DNA of 64,000 nt from an uncultured Methylophaga sp. (GCA_963975785.1 CAXBIM010000006.1:7448-71447), one strand, 5' to 3'. Positions 13,699 through 48,226 are shown, counted from the stretch's first letter. Translations and numbers: made by a program. The notes: generated by a model from the sequence alone, not told the origin.

Positions 13699-13744
13699 AG
13701 GGATAAATACGTATTTTCAAAAATGTTAATGAGGATAGTATCGT
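13699..13744 (+). promoter_or_regulatory. TACGTA-box M1 + shared downstream promoter element (soxH-like / soxC divergent region)
   Basis: AGGGAT-aa-ATACGTAT-TTTcAAAAAtg..GGATAGTATcGTA. The same bipartite arrangement occurs at 42727..42770. Confidence 0.55.
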
Positions 13745-13786
13745 ACCTAATGACAATCTTGATATAAGTATAAATACAGGTGAAGT

Positions 13787-15106
13787 GTGAAAGATATAAC
13801 TGCCAAAACTAGCGAATTACTGAAAGAAATAAAAGCTGAAGCTGCAGAGTTGCCTGAGTTAAAAAGACGTAATTTTCTTTTAAATGGTATTAAGTTAACA
13901 GCGGGTACAGCACTAGCAGCAAGTGTTGGTAGGGTATTAGCCTCAGAGCAGTCTTTACCACCTAATGTGCCAGCATGGACAAAATCACTTGGTAGGGGGG
14001 TTGTATCAGTACCTTATGGTATGCCTTCCAAATTTGAAAGTGATGTCGTTCGTCGTACCGTTTCTTGGTTGACTGCAGACCCGATATCCTCCATTAGTAT
14101 GACTCCGATACATGAAATGAAAGGAATTATCACACCAAGCGGGCTAGTGTTTGAACGCTACCATGCCGGTGTACCAGAAATAAACCCCGATGAACATCGC
14201 TTAATGATTCATGGGATGGTTGATAGACCATTAATTCTTACTATGGATGAGTTAATGGCCTTTCCATCTGAATCAGTTATTCATTTCCTAGAATGCCCCG
14301 CGAATGGAGGAATGGAATGGCGTGGTACACAGATGGAAGCCCTACAGTTTACTCATGGCATGCTGAGTTGTTGTGAATGGACAGGAGTTAAATTATCTAC
14401 CTTACTAGATGAAGTAGGTTTAAGTAAAAATGCTAAGTGGGTTCTGGCTGAAGGTGCTGATGGTGCAGCAATGACTAGGAGTATACCCATTGAGAAAGCA
14501 CTGGATGATACCTTGGTTGTTTATGCACAAAATGGTGAAATGTTACGTCCAGAGCAAGGTTATCCCGTTAGATTATTCAATCCTGGCTGGGAAGGAAATA
14601 CCAGTATTAAATGGCTACGCCGTCTAGAAATAGGAGATAAACCATGGTATCAACGAGAAGAAACCTCTAAATATACTGATCTACTCCCTGATGGCACAGC
14701 AAGAAAATTTAGTTTTATTCAAGAAACAAATTCAGTCATCACCTCTCCATGCCCAGAGCGGCCTATGTTGAGAAGAGGTGTTCACGAGCTTGAAGGCATT
14801 GCATGGTCAGGACGAGGGAAAATTAAACGTGTTGATGTGTCGCTTGATGGTGGTGTGACTTGGCAACAAGCAAGACTGAAAGGTCTGGTTTTATCTAAAG
14901 CACTTACTCGATTTAGCTTGCCTATAAATTGGCAAGGACAATCACTTTTATTGCAAAGCAGATCTATCGATGAAACGGGATATGTTCAACCAACGCTCAG
15001 TCAATTGCGAGCAGTAAGGGGTAGTAATTCTATCTATCATAAAAATTCAATACACACTTGGAAACTAGATCCAGATGGGACGGTGAGCAATGTACAGTTG
15101 GCATAA
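13787..15106 (+). CDS. soxC: sulfane dehydrogenase molybdopterin subunit SoxC
   Basis: Tat-type RRNFL signal and sulfite-oxidase-family content. The stop overlaps soxD. Confidence 0.85.
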   Translation: MKDITAKTSELLKEIKAEAAELPELKRRNFLLNGIKLTAGTALAASVGRVLASEQSLPPNVPAWTKSLGRGVVSVPYGMPSKFESDVVRRTVSWLTADPISSISMTPIHEMKGIITPSGLVFERYHAGVPEINPDEHRLMIHGMVDRPLILTMDELMAFPSESVIHFLECPANGGMEWRGTQMEALQFTHGMLSCCEWTGVKLSTLLDEVGLSKNAKWVLAEGADGAAMTRSIPIEKALDDTLVVYAQNGEMLRPEQGYPVRLFNPGWEGNTSIKWLRRLEIGDKPWYQREETSKYTDLLPDGTARKFSFIQETNSVITSPCPERPMLRRGVHELEGIAWSGRGKIKRVDVSLDGGVTWQQARLKGLVLSKALTRFSLPINWQGQSLLLQSRSIDETGYVQPTLSQLRAVRGSNSIYHKNSIHTWKLDPDGTVSNVQLA

Positions 15107-16052
15107 AAAATTAGCTTTTATTGCTATAGCTGGCCTATCTCAGCTAGGTATATCTTATACGGTCTATTCGCAAGAACCAGGCTATTATAATTTGGGACGT
15201 ACAGCAACAGAAGTCGAAATTGCAGGCTGGGATATTGATGTTAGACCTGATGGCAAAGGGCTACCTCCTGGAAGTGGTTCAGTATCACATGGTGAAGTTG
15301 TATATGAAGCAAAATGTGCTGCATGCCATGGCCCATTTGGTGAGGGTGCAGGTCGTTGGCCAAAATTGGCTGGTGGATTTGGAACATTGACAGCAGAACG
15401 ACCTGAAAAGACCGTGGGTAGTTATTGGCCTTATGCAAGTACGCTTTGGGACTATATTCATAGAGCAATGCCTTTTACTGCACCACAGTCATTAACGGAC
15501 GATGAAACCTATGCATTAACAGCATATGTTTTATACCTTAACGACATAGTTGAGGACGACTTTGAATTAACTCAATCTAATTTTGTAGAGATAGAAATGC
15601 CAAATAAAGATGGCTTTTTTGTCGACACACGTCCAGATGTCAAAAATACTGCTTGCATGGAAAATTGTAAAGACCCTGCAAGCATTAAAGTTACTTCGGC
15701 AATCAAGGGTATTACACCTCTACAACATGTAGAAAAACGTCAGAAAATTAATGAGACCAATACTACTTCAATAGAAGACTCCACTAGTTTAGAAACAATA
15801 AATCAAGGGGAAACGATTTATAAAAATGCCTGTTTAGTTTGCCATGGCCAAGGTGTAGCCGGAGCTCCAAAACTGGGTGAGAAGGCTATGTGGGAAAAAA
15901 GGATATCTCAAGGTATCGAGGTATTAGAAAAGCATGCCATAAATGGTTTTTCAGGAGAGTCTGGAACTATGCCTGCTAAGGGTGGTAATCAAGATTTAAC
16001 TGAAGAGGAAGTCAAATCTGCCGTTGCATATATGGTCGAAAAAAGTCAGTGA
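15090..16052 (+). CDS. soxD: di-haem cytochrome c SoxD
   Basis: Two CxxCH sites (CAACH, CLVCH), a signal sequence, and a position after soxC. Confidence 0.8.
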   Translation: MYSWHKKLAFIAIAGLSQLGISYTVYSQEPGYYNLGRTATEVEIAGWDIDVRPDGKGLPPGSGSVSHGEVVYEAKCAACHGPFGEGAGRWPKLAGGFGTLTAERPEKTVGSYWPYASTLWDYIHRAMPFTAPQSLTDDETYALTAYVLYLNDIVEDDFELTQSNFVEIEMPNKDGFFVDTRPDVKNTACMENCKDPASIKVTSAIKGITPLQHVEKRQKINETNTTSIEDSTSLETINQGETIYKNACLVCHGQGVAGAPKLGEKAMWEKRISQGIEVLEKHAINGFSGESGTMPAKGGNQDLTEEEVKSAVAYMVEKSQ

Positions 16053-16074
16053 GTGTAACTATTGATGTCGTCCA

Positions 16075-16443
16075 ATGAGGAAGTCGCATATGAATAAAAT
16101 AGTAATTAAATTAATGACGATAATAGCATTAATGCCCCTTGGAATAACCTGTGTGATTGCAGCAGATAGTAGTGTGATTATGCAAGGGAAAGAACTTACA
16201 TTTGATAGAAAAAAGGGTAATTGTCTAGCTTGTCATGCAATAGATGATGGAGAGCTGAGCGGTGAGGTTGGGCCAGCCCTAATTGATATGAAAAGTCGTT
16301 ATCCACAAAAATCAGCACTTAAAGATCAAATTTGGGATGCAACAAAACGCAATCCTGCTACGTCAATGCCACCATTTGGAAAACACAGAATGTTAACTGA
16401 TGAAGAGATCGATAAGGTCGTTGAATATATTTATTCTTTATAA
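16075..16443 (+). CDS. soxX: mono-haem cytochrome c SoxX
   Basis: A CLACH haem site and a signal peptide. An alternative start is at 16090. Confidence 0.8.
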   Translation: MRKSHMNKIVIKLMTIIALMPLGITCVIAADSSVIMQGKELTFDRKKGNCLACHAIDDGELSGEVGPALIDMKSRYPQKSALKDQIWDATKRNPATSMPPFGKHRMLTDEEIDKVVEYIYSL

Positions 16444-16472
16444 AGATTTGTACAAAATAACGAGAGGTAAAC

Positions 16473-16934
16473 ATGTTACAAAAAAGAAGATTAATGCTGA
16501 AAAGCATACTGGGAATGGCGACACTATTGGGTGGGATAGCCGTGATGCCAAGACTCGCTTTTGCCAAATGGTCAAAAGCATTTGATGCAAAATCTGCTGA
16601 CAGCGCATTGATGGGACTGTATGACAAGACAGAGTTGCAGAAAACTGAACGTATTCAATTAAAAGTACCAGAGATTGCAGAAAATGGTGCTGTAGTACCG
16701 GTGAATGTAACAACAGATCTAGAAAATGTGAAAACGATAAGCATTATAGGCGTAAAAAACCCACAGCCATTGGCTTGTTGTTTCACCATTCCAGAAGGAA
16801 CAGATGCAGATGTGTCTATCAGGATAAGGTTGTTTGAAACTATGGATGTCCAAGCAATTGTTGAGACAACTGACGGCACACTACATAGTGTTCAACAAGA
16901 AGTAAAAGTAACCATTGGTGGTTGTGGCGGTTAA
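16473..16934 (+). CDS. soxY: sulfur carrier protein SoxY
   Basis: Tat-like signal (KRRLML) and the diagnostic C-terminal GGCGG swinging-arm motif. Confidence 0.92.
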   Translation: MLQKRRLMLKSILGMATLLGGIAVMPRLAFAKWSKAFDAKSADSALMGLYDKTELQKTERIQLKVPEIAENGAVVPVNVTTDLENVKTISIIGVKNPQPLACCFTIPEGTDADVSIRIRLFETMDVQAIVETTDGTLHSVQQEVKVTIGGCGG

Positions 16935-16955
16935 AGATAATTTGAGGGCGGAAAC

Positions 16956-17258
16956 ATGAAAGTTAAAGCAACAATGAAAGCAGACAAGGTGCTAGTGAAA
17001 CTATTGGCTAAACATCCAATGGAAACTGGACTACGTAAAGACAAAGGTACGGGGGATTTAATTCCAGCGAAATATATTCAAGAACTAACCTGTAAGCATA
17101 AAGATAAATTTGTATTTATAGCTGATTTTGGGCGTTCAGTTTCTAAAGACCCATATCTATCATTTACATTTTCAGGTGGACAATCTGGAGAGACATTGAC
17201 GTTAGCATGGATAGACAGCATGGGTGATAGTGAAACTGTAGATGCCGTTATTAAATAA
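16956..17258 (+). CDS. soxZ: SoxZ
   Basis: 100 aa immediately after soxY, with typical SoxZ size and content. Confidence 0.85.
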   Translation: MKVKATMKADKVLVKLLAKHPMETGLRKDKGTGDLIPAKYIQELTCKHKDKFVFIADFGRSVSKDPYLSFTFSGGQSGETLTLAWIDSMGDSETVDAVIK

Positions 17259-17273
17259 CAAAAGGCTAGACAT

Positions 17274-18110
17274 ATGAAATTATATTCCTATTATGCTATG
17301 ACCGTACTATGTTGTTCTTTATCCGTTACTACAAGCTATGCTGAACCACAAACGGATAATGAAACGGTAAGAAGTTATTTTCAGGATCTTTTCCCTGATC
17401 TGGCTCTCGACCAGTATGTTGATGGCGTTTATGCAATTGATGAAAATTCACGATCTCAATGGTTAGAAATGGAAGAGTTTCCACCATATGATGCCGCCAT
17501 TGAAAAAGGTGAAACTCTATTTTCAACCCCTTTTGCAAATGGGAAATCTTATGCTGATTGTTTTGAAAATAAAGGAATAGCCATAAAGCAAAATTATCCC
17601 TATTTTGACACTGACAAAGGTCAAGTCGTTACGCTTGAGTTGGCTATAAACGACTGCCGTATCCTGAATGGTGAGCAAGCCCTGAAATATGGGAAGGGAG
17701 ATTTAGCTTATATTTCATCATATATGGCTTCTACTTCACGAGATCAAAAAATAAACATCACTATTCCTGATGACCCACGAGCAAAAGAAGCCTACGAAGA
17801 AGGTAAACAGTTCTTTTATTCTCGACGAGGTCAACTAAATATGGCTTGTGCGACTTGTCATATCTCCAATGCTGGCAAGCGTTTGCGAGCAGATACTCTA
17901 AGTCCAGCGTTAGGTCAAGTTTCACACTTCCCAGCCTTTAGATTCAAATGGGACGATGTTGGCACGTTACAACGTCGTTATGCTGGTTGTAATACACAAA
18001 TAAGATCAAAACCTTTCGGCTTACAAAGCCAACAGTACCGTAATTTAGAGTACTTCCATACTTATATGAGTAACGGCCTACCGTTAAATGGCCCAGGTTC
18101 AAGGAAATAA
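17274..18110 (+). CDS. soxA: cytochrome c SoxA
   Basis: Signal peptide, a CATCH haem site and a conserved Cys in RRYAGCN. Confidence 0.85.
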   Translation: MKLYSYYAMTVLCCSLSVTTSYAEPQTDNETVRSYFQDLFPDLALDQYVDGVYAIDENSRSQWLEMEEFPPYDAAIEKGETLFSTPFANGKSYADCFENKGIAIKQNYPYFDTDKGQVVTLELAINDCRILNGEQALKYGKGDLAYISSYMASTSRDQKINITIPDDPRAKEAYEEGKQFFYSRRGQLNMACATCHISNAGKRLRADTLSPALGQVSHFPAFRFKWDDVGTLQRRYAGCNTQIRSKPFGLQSQQYRNLEYFHTYMSNGLPLNGPGSRK

Positions 18111-18114
18111 TATT

Positions 18115-18546
18115 ATGGTTAATACAAATGGTTTAGCAAAAATATTTTTATTAATTGCACCGATGATTTTGTCAGCTTGTACTGATGAAGAGCAAGCTGC
18201 TAATAATGTAAAAAATTCGGTACAGCAATCACCGTCAGATAATTCAAACCAACAACTTCAGTCAGAGGGTTCAAATTTAGATAAATTGATAAACACGGAA
18301 GATGATGTTGACCTGCATGAGCTTATGCATCAAGTCGCTCAGGCAAGACGGTATGCTGAAAAAGAAGGATTTGTATGGAGTACAACTGAGCCATTGATTG
18401 TAAAAGGCTATGCAGCCGCAAAAGCAGGAAATGATGTTCAAGCTAAAGCTTTTTTCCAAGAAGCCAAGAAGCAATTCAAGCTTTCAATAGTGCAAGCAAG
18501 ATATGCAGAGAAGCATTGGGAATTACTAATACCCAAAGAAGGATAA
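18115..18546 (+). CDS. hypothetical lipoprotein within the sox operon
   Basis: I prefer the internal Met at 18115. Lipobox ILSAC is present. I recognise no family. Confidence 0.55.
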   Translation: MVNTNGLAKIFLLIAPMILSACTDEEQAANNVKNSVQQSPSDNSNQQLQSEGSNLDKLINTEDDVDLHELMHQVAQARRYAEKEGFVWSTTEPLIVKGYAAAKAGNDVQAKAFFQEAKKQFKLSIVQARYAEKHWELLIPKEG

Positions 18547-18576
18547 TTAACTATTTCAACAAATAGGAGAACAACA

Positions 18577-19227
18577 TTGAAAAAAATATTACTAAACACT
18601 GTAATCTTATTATCATCGTTAATTTTAATAGGACCCGCTAATGCATTAGATGTCCAAATCTCTCCTGATTTGGCCTCAGTTGATGTTATTCATAACGGTA
18701 AGAAAGTTACTATTATGCGAAATCAAGATACTACTAATACTATCAATCAAGATTATGCAAAGACCTCTAGAAAATGTCCTCCGTTTTGTATTAGACCTAT
18801 AAAAATTGCAGAAGGTGTAGAGACACTAGGTGAACTAGAAATAATTAACTATCTGAAAATGAAAAGCGATGGCGATGATTCTATTCTTGTTATAGATTCA
18901 CGTACGCCTGATTGGGTTGAAAAAGGCACAATACCTGGCTCAATAAATCTACCATGGGATAAATTAGATGTTGAATCTGGAGCCGATCCTTTCAGTATTG
19001 CTGATATTTTACAAAAACAATTTGGTGTAATAGAGCGAGAAGGTTTATGGGATTTTTCAAAAGCAAGAACCCTAGTACTATTTTGTAATGGTATGTGGTG
19101 TGGCCAGTCACCAAGAAACATACATACATTATTACAATTTGGTTATCCAGCAGAAAAAATAAAATGGTATCGCGGCGGCATGCAAAATTGGGAAGCGCTA
19201 GGTTTAGCCACTGTCAAGTCTATGTAA
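18577..19227 (+). CDS. periplasmic rhodanese-domain sulfurtransferase
   Basis: Signal peptide and active-site loop FCNGMWCGQS. TTG start. Confidence 0.75.
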   Translation: MKKILLNTVILLSSLILIGPANALDVQISPDLASVDVIHNGKKVTIMRNQDTTNTINQDYAKTSRKCPPFCIRPIKIAEGVETLGELEIINYLKMKSDGDDSILVIDSRTPDWVEKGTIPGSINLPWDKLDVESGADPFSIADILQKQFGVIEREGLWDFSKARTLVLFCNGMWCGQSPRNIHTLLQFGYPAEKIKWYRGGMQNWEALGLATVKSM

Positions 19228-19249
19228 TTTAGCAACTTTTCACTTCACC

Positions 19250-19306
19250 GCTGCCCTTGATATATTCACCCTATCACGGAGGATATAATCAAGGGCAGCG
19301 TTTTTT
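19250..19306 (+). terminator. rho-independent terminator-like hairpin
   Basis: gctgcccttgatata ... tataatcaagggcagc followed by gtttttt. Confidence 0.7.
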
Positions 19307-19329
19307 AAACCTTATATTTCTGGTTAGTT

Positions 19330-21087
19330 ATGAATAGACGTGAATTCTCACAAATACTTGCGATTGCAGGTATGGCTAATATTTTCCCTACTGCTGCATT
19401 TTCAAAAACTCAAGACAATGGCAGTAATATGTATCAAGTGCCTAGTTTTGGCAATGCACGTTTATTACATATAACTGACAGTCATGCCCAATTACTGCCC
19501 GTTTATTTTAGAGAGCCATCTGTCAACCTAGGTGTTGCATCAGAAAATGGTAGGCCTCCACATTTAGTTGGCCAATATTTTTTAGATTACTATGGTATTC
19601 AATCAGGTAGTGTCTCTGCCCATGCATTTACAGCGTTAGATTTTGTCGATGGAGCTGAACAGTTTGGCAAAGTGGGTGGTTATGCCTATTTAGCAACATT
19701 GATAAAACAGTTACGACAAAGCTATGGCGCAAATGACCAATCTTTATTACTTGATGGTGGTGATACATGGCAAGGGTCAGCAACAGCATACTGGACACGA
19801 GGTAAAGACATGGTCGAAGCCTCAAATATATTAGGTGTTGATGTGATGACAGGCCATTGGGAGTTCACCTATCAAGCTGACGAAATATTAGAAAATATTT
19901 CAGAATTTAAAGGTGAGTTCTTAGCTCAAAATGTGAAAGTTAGTCAAGATGCCTTATTTGAAGGTTCTCCAGCTTATGATGAAGAAACTGGCCATGCCTT
20001 CAAACCATATACAATTAAAGAAATTGGTGGTGGACGCGTTGCCATTATAGGGCAGGCATTTCCATATACTCCTATTGCTAATCCCAGCCGTTTTATTCCT
20101 GACTGGACCTTCGGCATTCAGGCACAAGAACTACAAGGTTTAATCGACAAAGTGCGTAATACAGAAAAACCTGATGCTGTGATTTTATTGTCACATAATG
20201 GAATGGATGTAGATTTAAAGTTAGCTGCAACAGTCACAGGGCTTGATGCGATATTGGGTGGCCATACACATGATGGTATTCCCAAACCAGTTGAAGTTAA
20301 AAATCAGTCTGGTATGACTTTAGTAACGAACGCTGGTTCCAATGGTAAATATATAGGTGTACTTGATTTAGAACTAGGTCAAGGTTATGTAAAATCTTAT
20401 CGATACCATCTACTGCCTGTATTTTCAAATTTTATCGATCCTGACTCTGAAATGGAAAGCTTTATTAACGATGTCCGAGCTCCTTATGAAGGTATATTAT
20501 ATGAAAAGTTAGCCGTCTCTGATGAGTTACTTTATAGACGTGGTAACTTTAATGGCACATTTGATCAGGTGATTTGTGATGCATTAAGAGCCGTTAACGG
20601 TGCTGATATTTCCTTATCTCCAGGATTCAGATGGGGAACGACTGTTTTACCAAACCAAGTCATCACGATGGAGCATGTGATGGATCAGACTTGTATTACA
20701 TATCCAGAAACATATACACGTGAAATGACCGGGGCTCAGATTCGAGCAATCCTAGAAGATGTGTGTGACAATATTTTTAATGCCGATCCTTTCTATAGAC
20801 AAGGAGGTGATATGGTAAGGCTAGGTGGTATGGACTATGAGTGCGATCCAACTGCACAGTTTGGCAAACGTATTTCCAATATGACTCTAGATAATGGGAA
20901 ATCAATTCAAGCAAACAAAAGTTACAAAGTGGCTGGTTGGGCTACTGTAAACTCACAATCAGACGGGGCACCTATATGGGATGTCGTTGCAGATTACCTA
21001 CGTGATAACAAAGAATTTTCTATTAAAAAAATGAACACACCTATCTTAAAAAACAGTGATAATAATAAAGGTATTATTAAGAGGTAG
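19330..21087 (+). CDS. soxB: thiosulfohydrolase SoxB
   Basis: Tat signal (NRREFSQ), a metallophosphoesterase/5'-nucleotidase-like protein (HITDSHAQ, GHWEF, GGHTHD), 585 aa. Confidence 0.9.
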   Translation: MNRREFSQILAIAGMANIFPTAAFSKTQDNGSNMYQVPSFGNARLLHITDSHAQLLPVYFREPSVNLGVASENGRPPHLVGQYFLDYYGIQSGSVSAHAFTALDFVDGAEQFGKVGGYAYLATLIKQLRQSYGANDQSLLLDGGDTWQGSATAYWTRGKDMVEASNILGVDVMTGHWEFTYQADEILENISEFKGEFLAQNVKVSQDALFEGSPAYDEETGHAFKPYTIKEIGGGRVAIIGQAFPYTPIANPSRFIPDWTFGIQAQELQGLIDKVRNTEKPDAVILLSHNGMDVDLKLAATVTGLDAILGGHTHDGIPKPVEVKNQSGMTLVTNAGSNGKYIGVLDLELGQGYVKSYRYHLLPVFSNFIDPDSEMESFINDVRAPYEGILYEKLAVSDELLYRRGNFNGTFDQVICDALRAVNGADISLSPGFRWGTTVLPNQVITMEHVMDQTCITYPETYTREMTGAQIRAILEDVCDNIFNADPFYRQGGDMVRLGGMDYECDPTAQFGKRISNMTLDNGKSIQANKSYKVAGWATVNSQSDGAPIWDVVADYLRDNKEFSIKKMNTPILKNSDNNKGIIKR

Positions 21088-21247
21088 CGTCGCATTTAGG
21101 CAATAATGCCTTCACCTTCGCAAATAAAAGACTAATGCTGGTGGACATGATTAAAGCATTCTGAAAACATTATTATCACAATGCCTATAATTCACCAGAG
21201 CGGTTTGATAAAACAGTCTAACCCTTCCTAAATATCGTCATTTGATG

Positions 21248-23008: not shown

Positions 23009-23088
23009 GTCTTAACCTTACGATCAATTTTGTTGTATGAGCAGTGAACAGACCACATTAATAAATAAGCTGTGTAAGAAAAATATGT

Positions 23089-24339: not shown

Positions 24340-24378
24340 AGATTTCTCTTTTTTGTGAATTATGTATGTGTTAGAAAT

Positions 24379-25458: not shown

Positions 25459-25473
25459 ATTATTACCTCTTAA

Positions 25474-25992: not shown

Positions 25993-26007
25993 TTTAGATC
26001 CTAAAAT

Positions 26008-29667: not shown

Positions 29668-29678
29668 ATACGTATATC
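29668..29678 (-). promoter_or_regulatory. TACGTA-box M2 (oriented toward mtoX)
   Basis: Minus-strand GATATACGTAT, an 11/11 match with M3. Confidence 0.45.
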
Positions 29679-29863
29679 AGCAAATCATATAATCAACTGA
29701 CATATGTCTTGCACTGCCAGTGTAGTGTTTTTGGGTAATAGAGTATTTAGGTATATATACTTATATATCGCTTGTTTCACATAAATTTGTTTGATGTCTA
29801 ATAAACAAGCTTGATAACATTTTTTAAAAAATTATCAATTGACTAATTCAGCCCATTAATTTG

Positions 29864-29882
29864 AGGGAAGATATACGTATAT
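29864..29882 (+). promoter_or_regulatory. TACGTA-box M3 (upstream of the tandem small paralogs)
   Basis: AGGGAAg-ATATACGTATAT, containing a perfect 12-bp palindrome. Confidence 0.5.
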
Positions 29883-29960
29883 GTTGAAATTAATAACAAC
29901 ACTATAATCAGAAGTCGTTGGTCGAGATAACACCGGTTTTGTCAATTAGGAACTCAAAAT

Positions 29961-30365
29961 ATGTTCGGACTAGAACTTATAAAACACAAAAGAAAACTGA
30001 CACAAAATTTCTCATTTTGTTTTTCTATCATCCATGACAGTTTAGGAAATGTTCCTGCTACGATTCAAAACGATGCTTTTGTTAATGGTGCAATTGTGGG
30101 GATTTGTGAAGACTATCTTCAAAAAAAGGGAATTGAAAAAGTGTCTTCTAAAGCACTCATTATAGATGCGGTGTTTGAAGAGATATATCGACGGGAATCC
30201 GTAAATGTTCAGACTCAAGTTGATGAATGGATAAAACAAAAAGATATGGTGTTTTTACGCGGCAATCAACAGGCAAATGATTACAACAACCATGATGAGA
30301 AATTGAAATGGTTATCTTTCTATACCGAACAGAACTTTGCGCGAGAAAATAACTTAATGTTGTAG
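29961..30365 (+). CDS. hypothetical protein, paralog 1 of tandem pair
   Basis: 134 aa. It shares MFGL..IKH.R.L...FS.CF....LGNVP.T.Q, DAVFE.I.RRESV.VQT with the next ORF. Confidence 0.65.
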   Translation: MFGLELIKHKRKLTQNFSFCFSIIHDSLGNVPATIQNDAFVNGAIVGICEDYLQKKGIEKVSSKALIIDAVFEEIYRRESVNVQTQVDEWIKQKDMVFLRGNQQANDYNNHDEKLKWLSFYTEQNFARENNLML

Positions 30366-30394
30366 TATAAAGTTGTAAATGAAAAGGAGATGTC

Positions 30395-30802
30395 ATGTTT
30401 GGTCTATCTGTCATAAAACATACACGGGTTTTGAGGAAAGCTTTTTCGGATTGTTTCTTACCTGTAAAAAATGATCTCGGTAATGTGCCGGTCACTATGC
30501 AGACTAGCAAAGTGATAACGGCGTCGATATTAGGCGTCTGTCGTGGTTACGCAGAAGGTCGAATAGACTATGAACCTGACTTTGAACTAATCGTCGATGC
30601 CGTATTTGAAGATATCTTTAGGCGTGAATCAGTGGAGGTACAGACACTAACTGAAGTTTGGTTACAAAATAATGATGATGAATTTATGCAATATTATTAT
30701 CAAGCTAAATCTACTGCAGTAAAGAGCCTAAATCTTAGTTGGCTTCAAGATATCGTATTACAGTCTTTTAAACCCACGCACACAGTGGTTTTTCCGCTTT
30801 AA
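30395..30802 (+). CDS. hypothetical protein, paralog 2 of tandem pair
   Basis: 135 aa with an aaggag RBS. It is a paralog of 29961..30365. Confidence 0.65.
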   Translation: MFGLSVIKHTRVLRKAFSDCFLPVKNDLGNVPVTMQTSKVITASILGVCRGYAEGRIDYEPDFELIVDAVFEDIFRRESVEVQTLTEVWLQNNDDEFMQYYYQAKSTAVKSLNLSWLQDIVLQSFKPTHTVVFPL

Positions 30803-30821: not shown

Positions 30822-31649
30822 TTAAAATATAGTATCGATCATTTCATGCAATAGTTTTTTGGTGTCGTCATCATCCGTGATAGCATCAGCTATGCCACAT
30901 TTACAGGCTAAATTAGCTTCAAAACCACGATAAATGAGCTTTGCTGTATGTACCAGCAAACGGGTACTCGCGCCTTCTTCTAGGCCATTGCCTACTAAGT
31001 TTCGGGTCAGATTAGCTAATTTAACAAGATGTTTGCATGTTTGTATGGGGAGTTTCGACTCTTCATGAACGATGGTGCTTTCAATTTCTTCATTAGGATA
31101 GTTGAAATCAATAGCGATGAAACGTTGCCTTGTACTGGGTTTTAGATCTTTAACCGCACTTTGATAGCCGGGGTTGTAAGACATTGTTAGACAAAAGTCA
31201 GGGTCGGCTTGTATCAGTTGACCCAGCTTTTCAAGAGGCAGTATTCTTCTATCATCACATAGCGGATGAATAACGACAGTTGTATCTTTTCGAGCTTCAA
31301 CGATCTCATCTAAATAGCAAATACAACCATTTCTAACAGCTGTGGTTAATGGTCCATCTTGCCAAACAGTGCTGTTATCTTTTATTAAGTAACGTCCTAC
31401 TAGATCTGATGTACTTAAATCATCATGGCAAGAAACTGTGATAAGAGGCCTTTTATGAAACCAACTCATGTATTCCATGAAACGGGTTTTACCGCAGCCT
31501 GTTGGGCCTTTTAGTAGAATAGGAATCTTTTCAGATAAGGCCGCATTGAAAATTTCGACTTCATTAGACGAAGGCAAGTAGTAAGGCTCATTCTGGATAA
31601 AATATTCAGAATTATTGATGATTTTATTGTGTTTATTCATAGATGTCAT
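30822..31649 (-). CDS. NorQ/CbbQ/NirQ-type MoxR AAA+ ATPase
   Basis: Walker A ILLKGPTGCGKTRF, Walker B CYLDEIVE, 275 aa. Its start overlaps the stop of the upstream VWA gene. Confidence 0.85.
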   Translation of the reverse strand: MTSMNKHNKIINNSEYFIQNEPYYLPSSNEVEIFNAALSEKIPILLKGPTGCGKTRFMEYMSWFHKRPLITVSCHDDLSTSDLVGRYLIKDNSTVWQDGPLTTAVRNGCICYLDEIVEARKDTTVVIHPLCDDRRILPLEKLGQLIQADPDFCLTMSYNPGYQSAVKDLKPSTRQRFIAIDFNYPNEEIESTIVHEESKLPIQTCKHLVKLANLTRNLVGNGLEEGASTRLLVHTAKLIYRGFEANLACKCGIADAITDDDDTKKLLHEMIDTIF

Positions 31650-33739
31650 AACGTTAATTGCTTATAAATTGTAGAAATTTGAATAGGTAACATTGAAATA
31701 TCAGAAATTAATTTGTAATTATTTTTTCCGATCATATGAGGCAAATAGTCTATGCACTCTCGATCAAAGGTTAATACGAAGGGATTAAGCGAAAGCGCTT
31801 TTGCTTCATTGAATGCACGCCGCGTATCTTCAATCCCATAATGACCACGATAACTATCGATATCATCTGGCTTACCATCTGTCAGCACAAATAAAATTTT
31901 GGTCTTAGCGTCATTAGAGTTAAGAATTTTACTTAAATGGCGAATCGCGGTGCCCATGCGGGTATATTGTTTAGCCGTAAGACTGGCTATTTTTTGCTGT
32001 GTAGTCGCACTATAGTTTTCATTAAATCGTTTAACAGGGTAAATATCACACTGCTCACGGCCTGATCCAGAAAAGGCGTAGATAGCATATTGATCGTTTA
32101 ATTTTGATAGTGTGCGTGATAAGAGTTCGATAGATTGTTGAATTATTTCATTTTTCCAACCAGCCGTTGAACCACTAATGTCAACGGCGAACATAATGGC
32201 AATACTACGACTATTTTTATTATTTCTGATATATATATTTTGAAAATCGTCTGCATGTTGTGTTTTATTTGATTTTGCGTGCACCCAAGCGTCGATATCA
32301 ATATCATCACCATCACTCTGATAGCGGATAAGGCGCTGACTATTCATGATCATATCCAAGGTTTTTTTTATCCGGTATTCAGCGGATCGTAAATCAACAT
32401 CGCCTAATGCCAATTTTTCGTTGGTGTTAGGAGTAATTGAAATTTCTTCGACACGGCACCAATCATGACGGTACTGTTGGAGTGAGGTATCCCATTCTGG
32501 ATATAGATATACGTTTTTTTGGTTTTTATGATTTTGGAGTTTTTCATGCTCATTATGATGTTTAACTAGCACTTCATCGAGTTGCTCCCAGATATCAGGA
32601 TATTGTTGCTCTAGACTAGAAAAGGAACTTGCGTTGGAACTATGCCTTAAAGAAATACGATCAGCATTTTTGTTATCGATATTATTTTTACTATCATCCT
32701 TCTGAAGTTCGTCATTGTTATTAAAAAGATTCATTAAAATAGAAGGTTGTGTCTGTTCCTCATACTGAAAATGCAATAGTTTTTCAGGTGAAAAATCGCA
32801 TTGATAAGGAAGTGGTTCACAAAGTGTAATCTCAGTATTGGCATGCTCAACAATTTCTAGACTATGAAAAACACTGGGTTGAGCATGACCTTTGAAAACA
32901 TGATGAGGATATGGGGCAAGTTCTAACTTGTTGTGTAGATAAAGGATGTTATTCCAGATGCCTGGAAACTCATGCTTCAGATAATGATTGATTCTTAACG
33001 TCTCTATAGTACTGAAGTGATCTAGAAAATGATCATCATTAGTATGAATATCTTGTTTAATACGCTCTATGGCTAGGCCCGTATCACACTCAAGTTGCCC
33101 TAGAAGCTGAAAAATAATCACTTTAAACACTAAGTAATTATCAGCGAAATCATCAAATATGCTAATAGTTATGGGTAGGAATAGCTGCTTACCATCTGTA
33201 TATGCCTGTTGCTTGTCATTGGTATTAATAGGCAGGACTGTAAGTGATTGCCCTGAGATGGTGGAAGCAAGTTTCTCTAAGATTTCTGATACCTCAGAAA
33301 ACTCTGCCGCAGATGTATCCAATTGTGAAATAAAGTCATGGTAGTTATTAATTAGTGCGTCAGCGTTAGCGAATTCTTTATTAACTAATGCTTGTTTAAT
33401 TTGAGAAATCCAAGACTGATTATCTATGCTTTTCATTAAACTCAATGCAGGCGCGTAAATCCACAGTATCGAATAAGCATGAGTCACAGAAAGATCAGCA
33501 AGATCTGCAAGTTGAATCAGAAACTCTGACTGTAAGGAGTGGCTGAGAGCTGCTAACTCAGTGACGGGCTCAATAATATTTCGAGTATCAACGCCATCAA
33601 GTATCAATTCAATACGAATCTTTAGCTCAGTTGTACTCATGCCGCCACAAGAGCCCGTTTGCTTTGATTCTAGTGAGACGGTTTTCTTGATTCGTTTTTG
33701 TTCCAACCAGGTTGTCAGCCTTGAACTAATGGAATTCAT
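31646..33739 (-). CDS. NorD/CbbO-like von Willebrand factor A protein
   Basis: C-terminal VWA with MIDAS DISGS. The YPEWD...YRHDWCRVEE motif is typical of NorD-type proteins. 697 aa. Confidence 0.8.
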   Translation of the reverse strand: MNSISSRLTTWLEQKRIKKTVSLESKQTGSCGGMSTTELKIRIELILDGVDTRNIIEPVTELAALSHSLQSEFLIQLADLADLSVTHAYSILWIYAPALSLMKSIDNQSWISQIKQALVNKEFANADALINNYHDFISQLDTSAAEFSEVSEILEKLASTISGQSLTVLPINTNDKQQAYTDGKQLFLPITISIFDDFADNYLVFKVIIFQLLGQLECDTGLAIERIKQDIHTNDDHFLDHFSTIETLRINHYLKHEFPGIWNNILYLHNKLELAPYPHHVFKGHAQPSVFHSLEIVEHANTEITLCEPLPYQCDFSPEKLLHFQYEEQTQPSILMNLFNNNDELQKDDSKNNIDNKNADRISLRHSSNASSFSSLEQQYPDIWEQLDEVLVKHHNEHEKLQNHKNQKNVYLYPEWDTSLQQYRHDWCRVEEISITPNTNEKLALGDVDLRSAEYRIKKTLDMIMNSQRLIRYQSDGDDIDIDAWVHAKSNKTQHADDFQNIYIRNNKNSRSIAIMFAVDISGSTAGWKNEIIQQSIELLSRTLSKLNDQYAIYAFSGSGREQCDIYPVKRFNENYSATTQQKIASLTAKQYTRMGTAIRHLSKILNSNDAKTKILFVLTDGKPDDIDSYRGHYGIEDTRRAFNEAKALSLNPFVLTFDRECIDYLPHMIGKNNYKLISDISMLPIQISTIYKQLTL

Positions 33740-33901
33740 TAGGAAAATCCCGTGAAAAATATTCTTACAAAGGATTCTAGAGCAGTGTGCTGAGTAAACG
33801 TTATTAGTATTTGTACTATGAACAATAAAGGGTAAATCAGGGTAATGGTGTTTATAAATAAGGGATTAGTCGAAGTTTGCAGAAGAGAAAGGTTTATGTG
33901 T

Positions 33902-33919
33902 AGGGATATATACGTATTT
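33902..33919 (+). promoter_or_regulatory. TACGTA-box M4 (norD-like / alkB-like divergent region)
   Basis: AGGGAT-at-ATACGTAT-TT. Confidence 0.5.
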
Positions 33920-34043
33920 CAATAATGATTACAGAAACATAAAGTTTTAGTCAGTTGGAATATTTTCGACTACAGCATTTTGGTGGTGAAACCCAACAAA
34001 ATAAGTACGTTTATAAAAATAGAAGGCAGAACGGAGAGAGAAT

Positions 34044-35225
34044 ATGAAAAAAATATTAATTAATATTCGGTATTTTATGGCACCGATACTCATTCTGGTG
34101 AGTATGGTCGGTGTACTTATCGGCGGGCCATTAGTATGGACCGGTGTTGTGTTATTCGGCGTAGGTATTTTACTAGATACTCTCAGTATGCCACTGCATA
34201 CTAAAGGTGCAGGATTTGATGACAATGGAGAGACAAACGGCTTCGCAGGATTACAAAATGCAGTGATGTACATAATGTTACCTGTATTTGCACTTTTGCA
34301 AATTGCAATGGCATGGCGTGTATTTCAGTACGTAAATGGAGTTCCAATTGAACCTGGTATGTTTATGGGTATTCCAATTCAAATGGGAATTTCAGGTGCA
34401 GAATTAATTGGCGCAACGCTATCTACGGGTATATTCGCAGGTATCGGCATTATCTACGGACATGAGCTAGCTCATACCAAAGGTTTTAGTTTCGTTATCT
34501 CTAGACTGATGATGGGATTAAGTGGCTCTGCACATTTTTGCTACGCACATGTATACAACCACCATTTAGAACTAGCTCATCAAGATGATCCAGCAACATC
34601 TCCACGTGGACGTAGTATCTATAAACATTTTTGGCTATCACATATGGGGCAGTCAAAGTTTTTATACAAAATGGAAGAGAAACGTCTAAAAAAACTTGGT
34701 AAATCATTTATTTCATTAGAGAACCGTTGGATACGTGGTTACTTCATGAGTTTGCCAACTATGATTTTATTCACATGGGTTGGTGGACCAATTGGGATTG
34801 CTTGCGTATTTCTAATTTGGACAGTATCAAACTTTGAATTAGAAGCGTTGAACTACATGGAACATTATGGCCTTATTCGTGAAAAAGGTCAGCCTATCGA
34901 TTATCGCCATTCATGGGATAACGACAACCTTTTCACTAGCTGGTTCTTTATTGAAATTGGTCGCCAAGGTGATCACCACGACCGAGGCGAAACGCACTTT
35001 TGGGAATTAGATGAAGTGGGCTCTCCAAATCCTGGTTGGGGCTACTTTACAGAACTAACCGTCGCATTAATTCCACCTTTATGGCACTCCGTTTACAAGA
35101 GAAAATTAGCTACTTGGGATAGAGATTTTGCCTCTGAAGGTGAACGGGCGATAGCTGCTCGTATCAATGCCGAAGTGGGGTATGAAGTAAACGACACCCC
35201 AGGATCCTACGCAAAAATAGGATAA
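34044..35225 (+). CDS. AlkB/XylM-family integral-membrane non-haem di-iron monooxygenase
   Basis: His boxes HELAH, HVYNHH and GDHHD, the NYMEHYG motif, and DPATSPRGRSIY after box 2. Multiple TM segments. Confidence 0.88.
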   Translation: MKKILINIRYFMAPILILVSMVGVLIGGPLVWTGVVLFGVGILLDTLSMPLHTKGAGFDDNGETNGFAGLQNAVMYIMLPVFALLQIAMAWRVFQYVNGVPIEPGMFMGIPIQMGISGAELIGATLSTGIFAGIGIIYGHELAHTKGFSFVISRLMMGLSGSAHFCYAHVYNHHLELAHQDDPATSPRGRSIYKHFWLSHMGQSKFLYKMEEKRLKKLGKSFISLENRWIRGYFMSLPTMILFTWVGGPIGIACVFLIWTVSNFELEALNYMEHYGLIREKGQPIDYRHSWDNDNLFTSWFFIEIGRQGDHHDRGETHFWELDEVGSPNPGWGYFTELTVALIPPLWHSVYKRKLATWDRDFASEGERAIAARINAEVGYEVNDTPGSYAKIG

Positions 35226-35678: not shown

Positions 35679-35858
35679 GTGAAAGTAAATTGGGATGAAA
35701 ACGTATGTCAACATGCCGGAGTATGCGTCACTAATTACTCATCATTATACAAGATTGAAGATGGTCAGTTTGTGATTACTACCGAAAATGCGACCGAAGA
35801 ATTAATAAGAGAAAGTATCTCAAACTGTCCATCAGGTGCACTAAAAATCGAAGATTAA
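35679..35858 (+). CDS. small divergent mono-cluster ferredoxin-like protein (not in ORF track)
   Basis: 59 aa, GTG start after an aagggg RBS: VKVNWDENVCQHAGVCV...SNCPSGALKIED. It has the CxHxxxC...CP pattern. Confidence 0.6.
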   Translation: MKVNWDENVCQHAGVCVTNYSSLYKIEDGQFVITTENATEELIRESISNCPSGALKIED

Positions 35859-35906
35859 AACATTTTAAACCTAAAAATATAAAAAATAAAAATAGGAGAG
35901 AGAGCA

Positions 35907-36593: not shown

Positions 36594-36632
36594 TCTTCTG
36601 CTACGTAAATTTCAATAGGTAAAATAAAAATC

Positions 36633-45431: not shown

Positions 45432-47384
45432 ATGAGTAGCCGAATTTCATTATTTCTATGTGATGATGGCGACTTACTGGATTATTTAAATTTAAATTTA
45501 AGTGCTGGTGTGTATTTAGAACACATAGCCTCATCCGAAGAGCTTTACCAACGTTTAGAGAATAAAATTGGCGCGCCAGACATACTTGTTTTAGGTAGAA
45601 GTGTTCAAGAGCCTATTAGAATGGCCGAACATATTCTTGTTCTACATGAAGGCATTAAAATTATCTTGCTTTGTGACGATAATCAAAAAGACACGTTTAA
45701 AAAGTCCATTCTTTTTTCCCCCTTCTTGAGCTCTGATGTCTCTGCATATGTCTATGATACGAAAGCAATTTTTTTAGACCTCCTTCAAGAAAAAGTAGAT
45801 GGTATCGAGAGCCAACGGAGTTATGAAACAACCATAGCACAAATGGAAAAAGAACGGTTAGCAACGATGACAGGACATCCGTTGGTCACTAATTATTTAG
45901 ATAAACTACTCGATAGAATACCCATTGGCATTTTGAATCTAGACTCTAAAGGTAAAATTTTAAACCTAAATGCCAGTGCCTATAGGTTACTTGAGTACGG
46001 TAAACGTGACTTGCTCAATACTTATATATATAACATCTTTCCAGGAAAGTATGCTTATCAAATCAAAGATATGATTACCGCAGTGTTGAATGCGAAAGAT
46101 ACCAGTTTCAGTAGCAATCAGATTATCGATTTTCATGGGCCAAAGGGTAAGGGCTATTTTGATATGATAATATCGTCATTGGCCAAATCTGCTTCAGAAC
46201 CGATACTTACCGTTATATTGCAAGAAGTCACCCTCAAGGTTCAAGAGGAAAATAAACGTCGCAAAATCGAACAAGCTCTACATCAAAGTGAGCAGCAATT
46301 ATTGTTAGTTATTAATGCAATACCTGAGCTAATTGCTTATGTTGATAAGAATCTTAGATATCAATTTAATAACCAAGCATTCGAAAAGTGGTTTGGTTTA
46401 TCTCGTCAGGCGATTTGTGGTCGAGAAATTTGGGACGTCATTGGTGAGTCGTCATACAAAATTGTTGAAAAATATGTTCATCAGGCAATGGCTGGTAAGA
46501 CAGTGACATTTGAAGAAAAAATCAGTTACCCAAGCTCTGGGATTGTTTATATTCGAAGCACTTATGTTCCTAACTTCTCCGAGACAGGTGAAGTTACAGG
46601 GTTTATTGTTTTAACTTCTGATATTACACAGTCAAAAAGTGATGAAGATCTTGAAAAGAAACATTTGCTTGAATTAGCGCATACTTCAAGAATGATCACC
46701 ATTGGGGAGATGAGCTCTCAACTAGCACATGAACTATCGCAGCCGCTCACATCAATAGATGCCTACAGTCGAGCTTGCATCACCTTGATTAAAAAGGATA
46801 AAACAACCAAAGAAGAAATTCTAAACGCACTGGAAAATGTTTCTAGTCAGGCTATTCGAGCTCAAGAAATCATGCATGAGCTTCGAAATTTTGTAAAAAA
46901 AGATGATTCAAGGAAAAATATTTGCGTAAATGGTTTGATTAACTCAGCTATAAAACTGTTGCGGTTGGAGTTTCAAGATCAGGATCCTGAAGTTGAACTC
47001 AAACTATCTGATAGCCTCCCTCAAGTGTTTGCAGATCGAATTTTGATTGAGCAGATATTGATCAACTTGATTAAGAATGCAATAGAAGCTATGAGGACAC
47101 TTGCCGTTGACAGCAGGCGGTTAATTATAGAGTCAAACAATCACAATCAGGAAGTATCAGTATCTATTCATGATAGTGGCCCTGGGCTATCTGAATATGA
47201 AATAAATAAAATTTTTGAACCATTCTATACAACAAAACCAGAAGGAATGGGCATGGGACTAGCTATTACACGCTCGATTATCTACTCGCATGGAGGGCAT
47301 TTGACAGTGGATCAGAATTTATATGGTGGCACGACATTTAAGTTCACTTTACCACTAGAAGACATTAAGTTTATTGAGGATTAA
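45432..47384 (+). CDS. PAS-domain sensor histidine kinase with N-terminal receiver-like (pseudo-receiver) region
   Basis: I prefer the start at 45432, just after the ACAD stop. It has two PAS-like blocks, the HisKA H-box AHELSQPL, and HATPase motifs (NLIKNAIEA, DSGPG, GMGMGL). Confidence 0.85.
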   Translation: MSSRISLFLCDDGDLLDYLNLNLSAGVYLEHIASSEELYQRLENKIGAPDILVLGRSVQEPIRMAEHILVLHEGIKIILLCDDNQKDTFKKSILFSPFLSSDVSAYVYDTKAIFLDLLQEKVDGIESQRSYETTIAQMEKERLATMTGHPLVTNYLDKLLDRIPIGILNLDSKGKILNLNASAYRLLEYGKRDLLNTYIYNIFPGKYAYQIKDMITAVLNAKDTSFSSNQIIDFHGPKGKGYFDMIISSLAKSASEPILTVILQEVTLKVQEENKRRKIEQALHQSEQQLLLVINAIPELIAYVDKNLRYQFNNQAFEKWFGLSRQAICGREIWDVIGESSYKIVEKYVHQAMAGKTVTFEEKISYPSSGIVYIRSTYVPNFSETGEVTGFIVLTSDITQSKSDEDLEKKHLLELAHTSRMITIGEMSSQLAHELSQPLTSIDAYSRACITLIKKDKTTKEEILNALENVSSQAIRAQEIMHELRNFVKKDDSRKNICVNGLINSAIKLLRLEFQDQDPEVELKLSDSLPQVFADRILIEQILINLIKNAIEAMRTLAVDSRRLIIESNNHNQEVSVSIHDSGPGLSEYEINKIFEPFYTTKPEGMGMGLAITRSIIYSHGGHLTVDQNLYGGTTFKFTLPLEDIKFIED

Positions 47385-47387
47385 AAA

Positions 47388-48029
47388 ATGAAACATGTAT
47401 ATATAGTTGATGATGACGATGCTGTAAGAAGCTCTTTAACCATGCTGCTACGCTCAGAAGACTTTAGTGTCATGCCCTTTGGAAATCCATCAGATTTTAT
47501 ATCACAGGTATCAGATCTAGAAGGCGGCTGTGTTGTACTAGACTTATGTATGCCCGAAATATCAGGTATGGAGGTCATGGAGGAATTGCAAAAACGAGAT
47601 ATAAAAATGCCCATTATTTGTATTACAGGACATGGCGATATTCCGACTGCTGTCAAAGCATTAAAAGTGGGCGCCTATGACTTTCTCGAGAAACCTTTTG
47701 ATTCAACGATGCTTATTCAAATAATAAAAGAATGTATCGCAGAGCGAATGGACAAACAAAATATAGAAGTATTTGAATCTAACGCTAAAGAAGCCGTTTC
47801 CAGTCTTACACCTAGAGAGCATGAGGTCTTAAAAGGTATGGTTGATGGCTTAAGAAACAAACAAATTGCTTTTTACATGGATATTAGTATCCGGACAGTA
47901 GAGCTACATCGAGTTCATGTAATGGAAAAACTCGGAGCAAAATCATTATCGGATGTTTTAAAAATAGCGATAGCAGCAGGTTTTGACTATATGGGTTTAT
48001 CAATAATTAACGAGCCACAACAGCATTAA
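47388..48029 (+). CDS. FixJ/TodT/StyR-type response regulator (REC + LuxR HTH)
   Basis: VDDDD, the LDLCMP phospho-Asp context, ITGHGDIPTAVKALKVGAYDFLEKPF, and a C-terminal LuxR HTH (LTPREHEVLKGMVDGLRNKQIA). Confidence 0.92.
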   Translation: MKHVYIVDDDDAVRSSLTMLLRSEDFSVMPFGNPSDFISQVSDLEGGCVVLDLCMPEISGMEVMEELQKRDIKMPIICITGHGDIPTAVKALKVGAYDFLEKPFDSTMLIQIIKECIAERMDKQNIEVFESNAKEAVSSLTPREHEVLKGMVDGLRNKQIAFYMDISIRTVELHRVHVMEKLGAKSLSDVLKIAIAAGFDYMGLSIINEPQQH

Positions 48030-48185
48030 ATTAAGAATATTTAGCACGATTAATGTTTAGGAAGGTAGTAGTAAGAACTATTCAAGATAGCCTTCCCTTA
48101 CTACACCTGTCCTTTAAACCTTAGCTTAGATTTACTTCTACACTTAGTTCATTTGATTATGTAATATTTTTTACCCATATATGAA

Positions 48186-48226
48186 TAATTACGTACATAT
48201 ATTTTCACCAAAAATGGTTATTGTTT
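48186..48226 (+). promoter_or_regulatory. TACGTA-box M7 + shared A/T element upstream of GST-fold genes
   Basis: aaTTACGTAcat-ATATTTTCAccAAAAATGgTTA. Compare M1 ...gTATTTTCAAAAATGTTA. Confidence 0.4.

Follow-up and report, generated by a model that had tools for sequence, protein, structure and literature searches.

Eight promoters within a 64,000-nucleotide stretch of DNA from an uncultured Methylophaga sp. (GCA_963975785.1 CAXBIM010000006.1:7448-71447; hereafter the window) carry a common 16-bp motif. They belong to a gene island, island 2, that encodes inorganic sulfur oxidation (sox), methanethiol oxidation (mtoX), an AlkB-like protein of the FA_desaturase family with norQ-norD beside it, and a two-component system. 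On the strength of sequence comparison across genomes, we consider it probable that these boxes are the operators of that one two-component system, which comprises a FixJ-family response regulator (47388-48029) and a PAS histidine kinase (45432-47384).

A palindromic box confined to island 2

A preliminary description of this DNA had listed seven intergenic boxes, M1 to M7, centred on TACGTA, and all seven sequences were found where it had placed them. Their recurrence is real: ATACGTAT occurs in five exact copies against 0.99 expected, a number reached in none of 100 shuffles, and all five copies are intergenic in a window of which, by our gene map, about 15% is intergenic DNA. TACGTA alone was weakly enriched (16 occurrences against 11 expected, 8 of the 16 intergenic). 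Furthermore, we built a 17-bp matrix solely from sites in other genomes and ran it over the window, where it scored M4 at 24.8, M1 at 24.3, M6 at 18.5, a site at 29748 at 18.3, M5 at 16.4 and M7 at 12.6 bits. Six distinct sites reached 12 bits or more within the intergenic DNA of island 2 (2,823 bp), compared with a single one among 54 kb of coding sequence and none elsewhere in the intergenic DNA of the window (6,198 bp); a first-order Markov null derived from intergenic DNA averaged 0.3 sites and never exceeded 3 in 300 runs, against the 6 observed. The scan of the intergenic classes and the Markov null together confirm the earlier claim that the box is confined to island 2.

For comparison we used 80 loci encoding AlkB-like relatives in species-representative genomes, among them those of Methylophaga thiooxydans DMS010 (L080), Cocleimonas (L017) and a high-GC gammaproteobacterium (L021, 58% GC); further loci (L201-L206) include the M. 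sulfidovorans-like L201 and L202. Read across the conserved sites, the box is a 16-bp imperfect palindrome, TAnGkA-N4-TmCnTA, with TACGTA as its commonest half-site, and every conserved site can be expressed as 6-N4-6. TACGTA is self-complementary, and sites that contain it fit a direct repeat with a 10-bp period and an inverted repeat equally well. The non-self-complementary sites, namely TAGGTATATATACCTA in L080, ATAGTA-N4-TACTAA in the window and TAAGTAGATATACTTA in L065, fit the inverted reading alone, and TAGGTATATATACCTA and TAAGTAGATATACTTA are perfect palindromes. Because the sites without TACGTA fit only the inverted reading, the dyad lies 5 bp away from the CG and TACGTA is one half of the site, so that the initial picture of a box centred on the CG of TACGTA has to be replaced. 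A direct-repeat model (TASGKAT heptamers, 10-bp period) was rejected since the mtoX, norD and L065 sites fit the inverted reading only. An alternative-sigma -35 element was rejected as well, since the box is palindromic and is itself followed by -35-like hexamers, and since the island has no sigma gene; an extracytoplasmic function (ECF) sigma gene adjoins the cluster only in L201 and L202.

In an alignment of 12 alkB-like upstream regions, conservation reaches about 10 bp upstream (TAGGGAT), and the downstream side is variable and -35-like. By reading, the base after the site opens a poor -35-like hexamer (TTTCAA, TTTTCA, TTCACA or TTAGCA) in all conserved promoters, followed by a spacer of 16-18 bp and a -10-like hexamer. 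This would put the site between about -52 and -36, a position typical of activators. Scans for consensus promoters and terminators picked up neither these weak promoters nor the long-loop terminator.

Two further searches were set aside. A stricter 28-bp matrix made from the alkB-like sites only was over-fitted and recovered just M4 and M1. A metagenome-wide scan for TAGGGATWWWTACGTAT returned at least 119 stretches; among the matches listed, only L163, L167 and L179 carry island genes, and the others are chance occurrences in unrelated DNA of 16-66% GC, of no use for regulon discovery. Separately, TTGGGATGAAAACGTAT (35690-35706, plus strand) scores 12.2 bits inside a small ferredoxin open reading frame (ORF; 35679-35858) that was called in L001 and falls below the 90-residue ORF cut-off. 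M. thiooxydans has a counterpart, TTGGGATCAAAACGTAT (L080 11646-11662). Either an internal site preceding the GST and reductase genes or mere conservation of coding sequence could account for it.

Predicted operators and promoters of the island

The gene map, obtained from Pfam scans of the window proteins, agrees with that of the preliminary description. Every island protein compared is identical between the window and a 483-kb TARA metagenome scaffold, and the AlkB-like protein of the window shares 92% identity with that of M. thiooxydans DMS010 and 89% with that of M. sulfidovorans, both of which degrade dimethylsulfide (DMS). The boxes are conserved in orthologous islands: M1, M4, M5, M6 and M7 recur in M. 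thiooxydans, M. sulfidovorans and uncultured relatives, M3 is kept in its core only and M2 is not kept, over genomes at 75-92% protein identity (L002-L015, L080, L201-L206).

M4 (TAGGGA-TATA-TACGTA(T), 33901-33917, plus strand) is the predicted operator of the alkB-like operon and is followed by a conserved -10-like TAAAGT at 33940-33945. The AlkB-like FA_desaturase gene (34044-35225, plus strand) is followed by genes for a globin, a small ferredoxin, a GST, a ferredoxin reductase, a FadL/TodX protein, a second globin, an SCO4226-like protein and an NMO, and a gene of unknown function. TAGGGATWTATACGTAT stands 125-160 nt upstream of the AlkB-like start codon and is nearly invariant in 12 loci (L002-L007, L009, L011, L013-L015, L080), with variants in L010 and L065. 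The alignment of the 12 upstream regions contains only three conserved blocks: the box, the -10-like hexamer (TAAAGT, TAGAGT) 23-24 nt after TACGTA, and a hairpin block. This hairpin or inverted repeat, AGTTGGAA-tat-TTTCGACT (33953-33972, plus strand), begins some 8 nt beyond the hexamer, where the alkB-like transcript is predicted to start, and is kept in 11 of the 12 genomes. On inspection, G-U pairs and compensatory substitutions, such as G-C in the window for C-G in L009, maintain its pairing, and it may act as a stem-loop of the 5′ untranslated region or as a second operator.

M1 (TAGGGA-TAAA-TACGTA(T), 13698-13714, plus strand), with a -10-like TAGTAT at 13736-13741, is the putative operator ahead of soxCD-XYZA-rhodanese-soxB (13787-21087). 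The site recurs upstream of soxC in L006, L007, L011 and L013, at equal spacing to TATAAT, TAGAAT, TAAAGT or TAGAGT. The architecture previously reported as common to M1 and M5 was borne out by a position-by-position manual count, in which 30 of 39 positions were alike, including GGATAGTAT. In L006, the sox (9849) and alkB-like (19789) promoters likewise share GGATATTTACGTATTCACA..TTAATT beyond the box. Flanks thus resemble each other among box promoters within one genome, and orthologous promoters elsewhere differ there; this likeness suggests promoter-module copying, or co-evolution with regulator and sigma contacts.

Two sites had been missed. The first, TAAGTA-TATA-TACCTA read towards mtoX (TAGGTATATATACTTA, 29748-29763, minus strand), is a conserved, predicted operator for the promoter of the mtoX (SBP56)-SCO1/MauG-thioredoxin-PDO/rhodanese-SQR-SulP genes, which run on the minus strand from 29460 down to 21248. 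In L080 (2667-2684) the mtoX site is the perfect 16-bp palindrome TAGGTATATATACCTA, and in both the window and M. thiooxydans it is followed by AATACT-N17-TACACT/TAAACT. The second, ATAGTA-CAAA-TACTAA(T) (ATAGTACAAATACTAAT, 33803-33819, minus strand), occupies the divergent norD-norQ promoter (norQ-norD, 30822-33739, minus strand), with TAGAAT following after 23 nt (33779-33774). In 11 loci an equivalent site (such as TAAGTACAAATACGAGT or TAAGTAAAACTACGTAT) precedes the longest norD ORF by 13-86 nt. The mtoX and norD sites use AGTA or GGTA half-sites; the norD site escaped a TACGTA-based search because its half-sites are AGTA, not CGTA.

M5 (ATGGTA-AATA-TACGTA(T), 42723-42739, plus strand), followed by TAGTAT at 42761-42766, is conserved as TTSGTATATATACGTAT in L003, L014, L080 and L201. 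M6 (TACGTA-AAAA-TACGAG(T), 42946-42962, plus strand) precedes the regulator operon itself, in which abh (a MetX-like hydrolase) and acad (an acyl-CoA-dehydrogenase fold) lead into the PAS histidine kinase and REC-GerE response regulator genes (43056-48029). This site had been taken as degenerate; it is a full site with TACGAG as its promoter-proximal half and a register 10 bp further right, the TACGTA aligned earlier being the distal half. In the form TACGTAW-N3-TACGAST it stands upstream of abh or acad in L003, L004, L006, L007, L009, L011, L013, L014, L015, L080 and L205. M7 (TATGAA-TAAT-TACGTA(C), 48180-48196, plus strand) is located upstream of two GST-like genes (48345-49807). The combination of TAnGwA-N4-TACGTAC with ATAwATTTTCAyCAAAAATGGTTATT is found upstream of their orthologues in L201, L203 and L205, and the GST-like orthologues with this site always lie downstream of abh, acad and the two-component genes. 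Two related arrangements were observed elsewhere: in a related lineage (L205 and L206, 7873-7915), TACGTATAACTACCTCT stands ahead of a separate pdo-sqr-sulP operon, and in L201 and L202 (7861-8440) the ECF sigma factor gene, absent from the window, is inserted between the GST-like genes and sulP.

A FixJ-like two-component system as the proposed reader

The kinase and regulator pair is the only regulator that travels with the box in the loci compared. As the preliminary description had proposed, the island FixJ-like regulator most likely reads the sites, a reading supported by synteny, by sites ahead of its own operon and by a FixJ-like recognition helix and operator. The regulator (47388-48029, plus strand) combines REC and GerE helix-turn-helix domains (Pfam Response_reg, 3.7e-29; GerE, 4.2e-18). 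Its best solved relatives are FixJ (5xso, 1.5e-47) and StyR (1yio, 4e-39), and its C-terminal domain is closest to that of Sinorhizobium meliloti FixJ (1x3u, 9e-15). The recognition helix ISxRTVExHR is conserved (ISIRTVELHRVHVM vs ISPRTVEVHRANVM) and invariant among orthologues. The kinase (45432-47384, plus strand; Pfam PAS, HisKA and HATPase_c) has a FixL-type core whose closest solved relative is the kinase module of Bradyrhizobium japonicum FixL (4gcz, 5e-48). No FixL haem-PAS structure appeared among its PDB matches at 1e-8, and against the NCBIfam FixL model it scored 219 bits over residues 172-653 (cut-off 850). An exact look-up of the window regulator protein in the contig index returned no record.

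The acad, kinase and regulator genes lie directly beside norQ-norD and the alkB-like gene in L006, L007, L009, L011, L013 and L015, and immediately precede the alkB-like gene in L017 and L021, where the regulators are 46-47% identical. Moreover, high upstream matrix scores and a regulator gene in the locus go together: a homologue was encoded in 8 of the 16 loci whose alkB-like upstream region scored at least 11 bits, as against 0 of 61 below that score. Upstream of the alkB-like gene, L017 carries CACGTATTTCTACGTAT (CACGTAT-N3-TACGTAT) and L021 carries CACGTAGTAATACGGAT (CACGTAG-N3-TACGGAT). L017 has a further site, TACGTAGAAGTACGTAA (TACGTAG-N3-TACGTAA), ahead of its own acad, kinase and regulator genes. 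A putative autoregulatory site is accordingly present upstream of the regulator operon both in L017 and in the Methylophagaceae loci that include this operon.

The binding motif of the FixJ subfamily has been hard to define (PMC4999443). In S. meliloti, the FixJ site in the fixK promoter reads TAAGTAATTTCCCTTA, with TAAGGGAAATTACTTA as its reverse complement, and SELEX (systematic evolution of ligands by exponential enrichment) gave the classes GTAMGTAG and GTAGTTTCCC, with footprints from -69 to -31 (PMC4999443). TAAGGGAAATTACTTA aligns with TAGGGATATATACGTA: both are 16 bp long and combine one GGGA-type with one [A/C]GTA-type half. The half-sites are TAAGGG/TAAGTA for FixJ and TAGGGA/TACGTA here, in both cases 6-bp halves around an AT-rich 4-bp centre, and the two kinds of site lie, given the promoter positions proposed here, upstream of the -35 region and overlapping it. 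The proteins resemble each other in the REC and GerE domains, the RTVExHR recognition helix and the FixL-type kinase partner. They differ in that the regulator here is no FixJ equivalog and its kinase gave no haem-PAS match at the threshold above. The host, in addition, is a gammaproteobacterial methylotroph in which the targets would be organosulfur and sulfur oxidation genes, norDQ, GST-like genes and the system's own operon rather than fixK or nifA, and the GGGA half seems to face the opposite way with respect to the promoter.

To judge by its half-sites, the FixJ operator is a much better analogue than the StyR/TodT box, whose half-site ATAAAC had earlier been likened to an ATATAC here. 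The STY box reads ATAAAC-N4-GTTTAT. The half-site here is TAnGkA and none of the training-set sites reads ATAAAC; the analogy proved spurious, with only the 6-N4-6 geometry and a position near -40, where the high-affinity StyR site also lies (about -40), in common. The StyS/StyR and TodS/TodT systems do resemble the present one in that a FixJ-subfamily regulator controls, or here would control, an oxygenase operon and in the FadL/TodX-type outer-membrane channel of the regulated cluster. Their architecture of multiple sites dependent on integration host factor was not seen here, and StyS and TodS are of the double-kinase type, unlike the single-kinase PAS protein of about 650 residues in the window. 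The second-best NCBIfam match of the regulator is TtrR, from a system that controls sulfur-compound metabolism, as the one here would; its 159 bits are far under the TtrR cut-off of 290, and TtrS has the architecture of a periplasmic sensor, whereas the PAS domains here are cytoplasmic.

RNA levels in M. thiooxydans DMS010 grown on DMS or methanol have been published (PMC6548844, Table S6), and this genome (L080) keeps the alkB-like, norD, mtoX, M5 and M6 sites together with the TACGTA core at M3. On DMS, transcripts of the AlkB-like and mtoX clusters rise by more than 100-fold (PMC6548844). Levels on DMS and methanol, respectively, were 4064 and 20 for mtoX, 1543 and 16 for SCO1-MauG, 618 and 12 for the NAD-binding oxidoreductase, 601 and 21 for the globin, 1469 and 18 for the FadL-like protein, 1097 and 17 for PDO-rhodanese, and 388 and 11 for sqr (PMC6548844).

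Under the mechanism that we propose, the phosphorylated regulator would bind the 16-bp imperfect palindrome, probably as a dimer. Bound at a site that ends where the weak -35 begins, the regulator would switch transcription on by recruiting or contacting RNA polymerase. Its targets would be soxCD-XYZA-B (M1), mtoX-SCO1/MauG-trx-pdo-sqr-sulP (29748), two paralogues of unknown function (M3), norD-norQ (33803), the alkB-like operon (M4), a small RNA (M5), its own abh-acad-kinase-regulator operon by positive autoregulation (M6) and the GST-like genes (M7). The likely cue would be growth on DMS or a DMS product. The comparisons show the motif, its enrichment and conservation, its synteny with the regulator and, in a relative, the joint induction of two target clusters; from these we infer which protein binds, that it activates instead of repressing, where the promoters lie and what the signal is.

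Several observations weigh against this reading. Two of the sites are irregular. M3 (GAGGGA-AGATA-TACGTA, 29864-29880, plus strand), a variant operator with TATAAT at 29903-29908 upstream of the two paralogous genes (29961-30802), has an odd spacer 1 bp longer than the others and scores just 7.7 bits in the N4 register; its orthologues in L080, L003 and L014 keep the TACGTA core and vary in left half and spacing. M2 (29668-29675, minus strand) is an isolated, exact ATACGTAT without a partner half-site and fails the matrix, and the orthologous position in L080 reads GCTGATATCTGAATGG within conserved flanks. It is probably chance or a low-affinity half-site, and the link to mtoX, for which M2 had been cited, rests instead on the site at 29748. 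A consensus sigma-70 scan found no 9-of-12 promoter at M1 or M4, which is consistent with activator-dependent promoters at the positions we infer. The regulator scored 217.1 bits against NCBIfam FixJ (NF006900), below the equivalog cut-off of 255, so that a specificity shared with FixJ is an extrapolation. The association of box and regulator is phylogenetically clustered and amounts to about three independent lineages, not 16 observations; L005, L010 and L065 have the box and no regulator within 10 kb, and no site of at least 11.5 bits was found upstream of acad in L021. On the side of expression, the AlkB-like protein of L080 (EEF81234.1) bears the same desaturase annotation as the induced gene, with MDMS009_226 equated to the L080 gene by annotation name only and the strand column of Table S6 not fully consistent. 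Finally, soxC (57 on DMS, 37 on methanol) and soxD (74 and 37) were only about 1.5-2-fold up on DMS in M. thiooxydans (PMC6548844). The original proposal of one regulon joining sox, mtoX and the AlkB-like cluster is supported by conservation and synteny, and for the latter two also by co-induction in M. thiooxydans; sox is not DMS-induced there. Because soxC and soxD barely change in that organism, sox membership is probably specific to genomes, this one included, whose sox genes carry the box.

Genuine operators might alternatively be read by another factor encoded elsewhere, such as a CysB-like LysR protein, with the kinase and regulator controlling something else. We regard this as unlikely. 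LysR-type boxes take the form T-N11-A, or ATAC-N7-GTAT, and do not fit a 6-N4-6 palindrome; a T-N11-A box was rejected on this geometry. The two-component operon is the sole regulator syntenic with the box in three lineages and has its own site in two of them, and the motif agrees with FixJ sites determined by experiment while the recognition helix is preserved. The three loci with a box and no nearby regulator do agree with a reader encoded elsewhere, as does the level of cysB (MDMS009_120) in M. thiooxydans, 669 on DMS and 11 on methanol (PMC6548844).

Another version, which we find improbable, retains the regulator as binder and makes it a repressor or dual regulator, so that induction follows from release and not from polymerase recruitment. 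The positions of the sites relative to +1 are themselves deduced, extra half-site-like sequences occur near -10 at several promoters (GGATAGTAT in M1 and M5), and PstyA carries StyR sites of both kinds, activating and repressing (PMC2442086). By reading, however, the conserved sites all end at the start of a poor -35 hexamer with 16-18 bp to a -10-like hexamer, an activator-dependent layout, and it is from positions of this kind that FixJ, StyR (at STY2, about -40) and TodT activate transcription. That the boxes are copied promoter cassettes of about 45 bp (by duplication or gene conversion) or a product of AT-rich composition, with no dedicated reader, is very improbable: the M1/M5 likeness includes the -10 region, the L006 sox and alkB-like promoters are alike beyond the box and TACGTA alone is mildly enriched, but between genomes 16-17 bp stay fixed while the surroundings diverge, the box occurs with different flanks at eight promoters and in lineages of 58% GC, and the Markov null predicts 0.3 sites where 6 were observed.

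A candidate small RNA and the dimethylsulfide pathway

M5 appears, from the sequence downstream of it, to drive a non-coding transcript of about 100 nt, with the hydrolase gene abh having its own promoter at M6. This candidate small RNA or leader (42773-42885, plus strand) ends in a long hairpin followed by a U-run and has orthologues in L080 (18683-18781), L003 (18698-18788) and L014 (15520-15609). Across these four genomes, the terminal hairpin has a 13-pair consensus stem in which four pairs show compensatory changes, and folding gave a minimum free energy of -26 kcal/mol (z = -3.3). The best complements in the window of its conserved CU-rich loop, ACCUUCUCUC, were the ribosome-binding sites of abh (GAGAGAAG), the alkB-like gene and mtoX (GAGAGAA). 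An Rfam search of the small RNA matched no family, and no conserved ORF was found in it.

The AlkB-like family is tightly conserved, with more than 1,200 relatives at E <= 1e-20 and 66-95% identity. Its hosts are Methylophaga, Thiothrix, Cocleimonas, sponge symbionts (Porisulfidus) and Rhodobiaceae, some genomes hold two or three copies, and pairing with norQ/norD is seen only in a Methylophagaceae-like clade. Distant loci (L016-L081, for example L029-L038 and L024/L032/L053) have no box and show other conserved upstream blocks, such as CTTGTATAATCGAGCGTATCTAATGCCCCC and TGTACAAGACAA, which places the family under different control elsewhere.

The AlkB-like protein is a candidate DMS oxygenase. 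A 2019 omics study postulated a methyltransferase for DMS and explained induction of the 'fatty acid desaturase' by membrane repair (PMC6548844); in the literature searched, we found no report of an AlkB-like DMS oxygenase or of this two-component system. We tentatively put forward, as a possibility we ourselves hold in some doubt, a wider scheme in which the FixL/FixJ-like pair would be the master DMS/methanethiol switch of marine Methylophagaceae and related sulfur oxidisers and its regulon would define the complete DMS pathway. The AlkB-like di-iron membrane enzyme, matured by NorQ/NorD and served by the reductase, ferredoxin, globins and FadL, would be a DMS-demethylating oxygenase feeding MtoX, and the small RNA would tune translation through its anti-Shine-Dalgarno loop.

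The kind of operator is itself known; what appears to be new is a FixJ-subfamily operator and predicted regulon joining an AlkB-like oxygenase, mtoX, sulfur oxidation and a candidate small RNA, which would add a multi-target, phylogenetically footprinted example to this subfamily. The conserved operator would tie the AlkB-like gene, its NorQ/NorD helpers, mtoX, sulfide and sulfur oxidation and a dedicated sensor into one transcriptional unit. What had been a set of co-induced genes thereby becomes a pathway with defined members that can be tested, in organisms for which the enzyme opening DMS degradation is still sought. Furthermore, the 16-bp motif can be used for regulon prediction in related genomes or metagenome bins, and the sensor-promoter pair could be transferred to Escherichia coli as a DMS or methanethiol biosensor.

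In the remainder of the window, a tRNA gene (3114-3187, 61 bits) adjoins the ORF at 3274-4269, which the preliminary description had counted in island 1; this arrangement fits an integration site.

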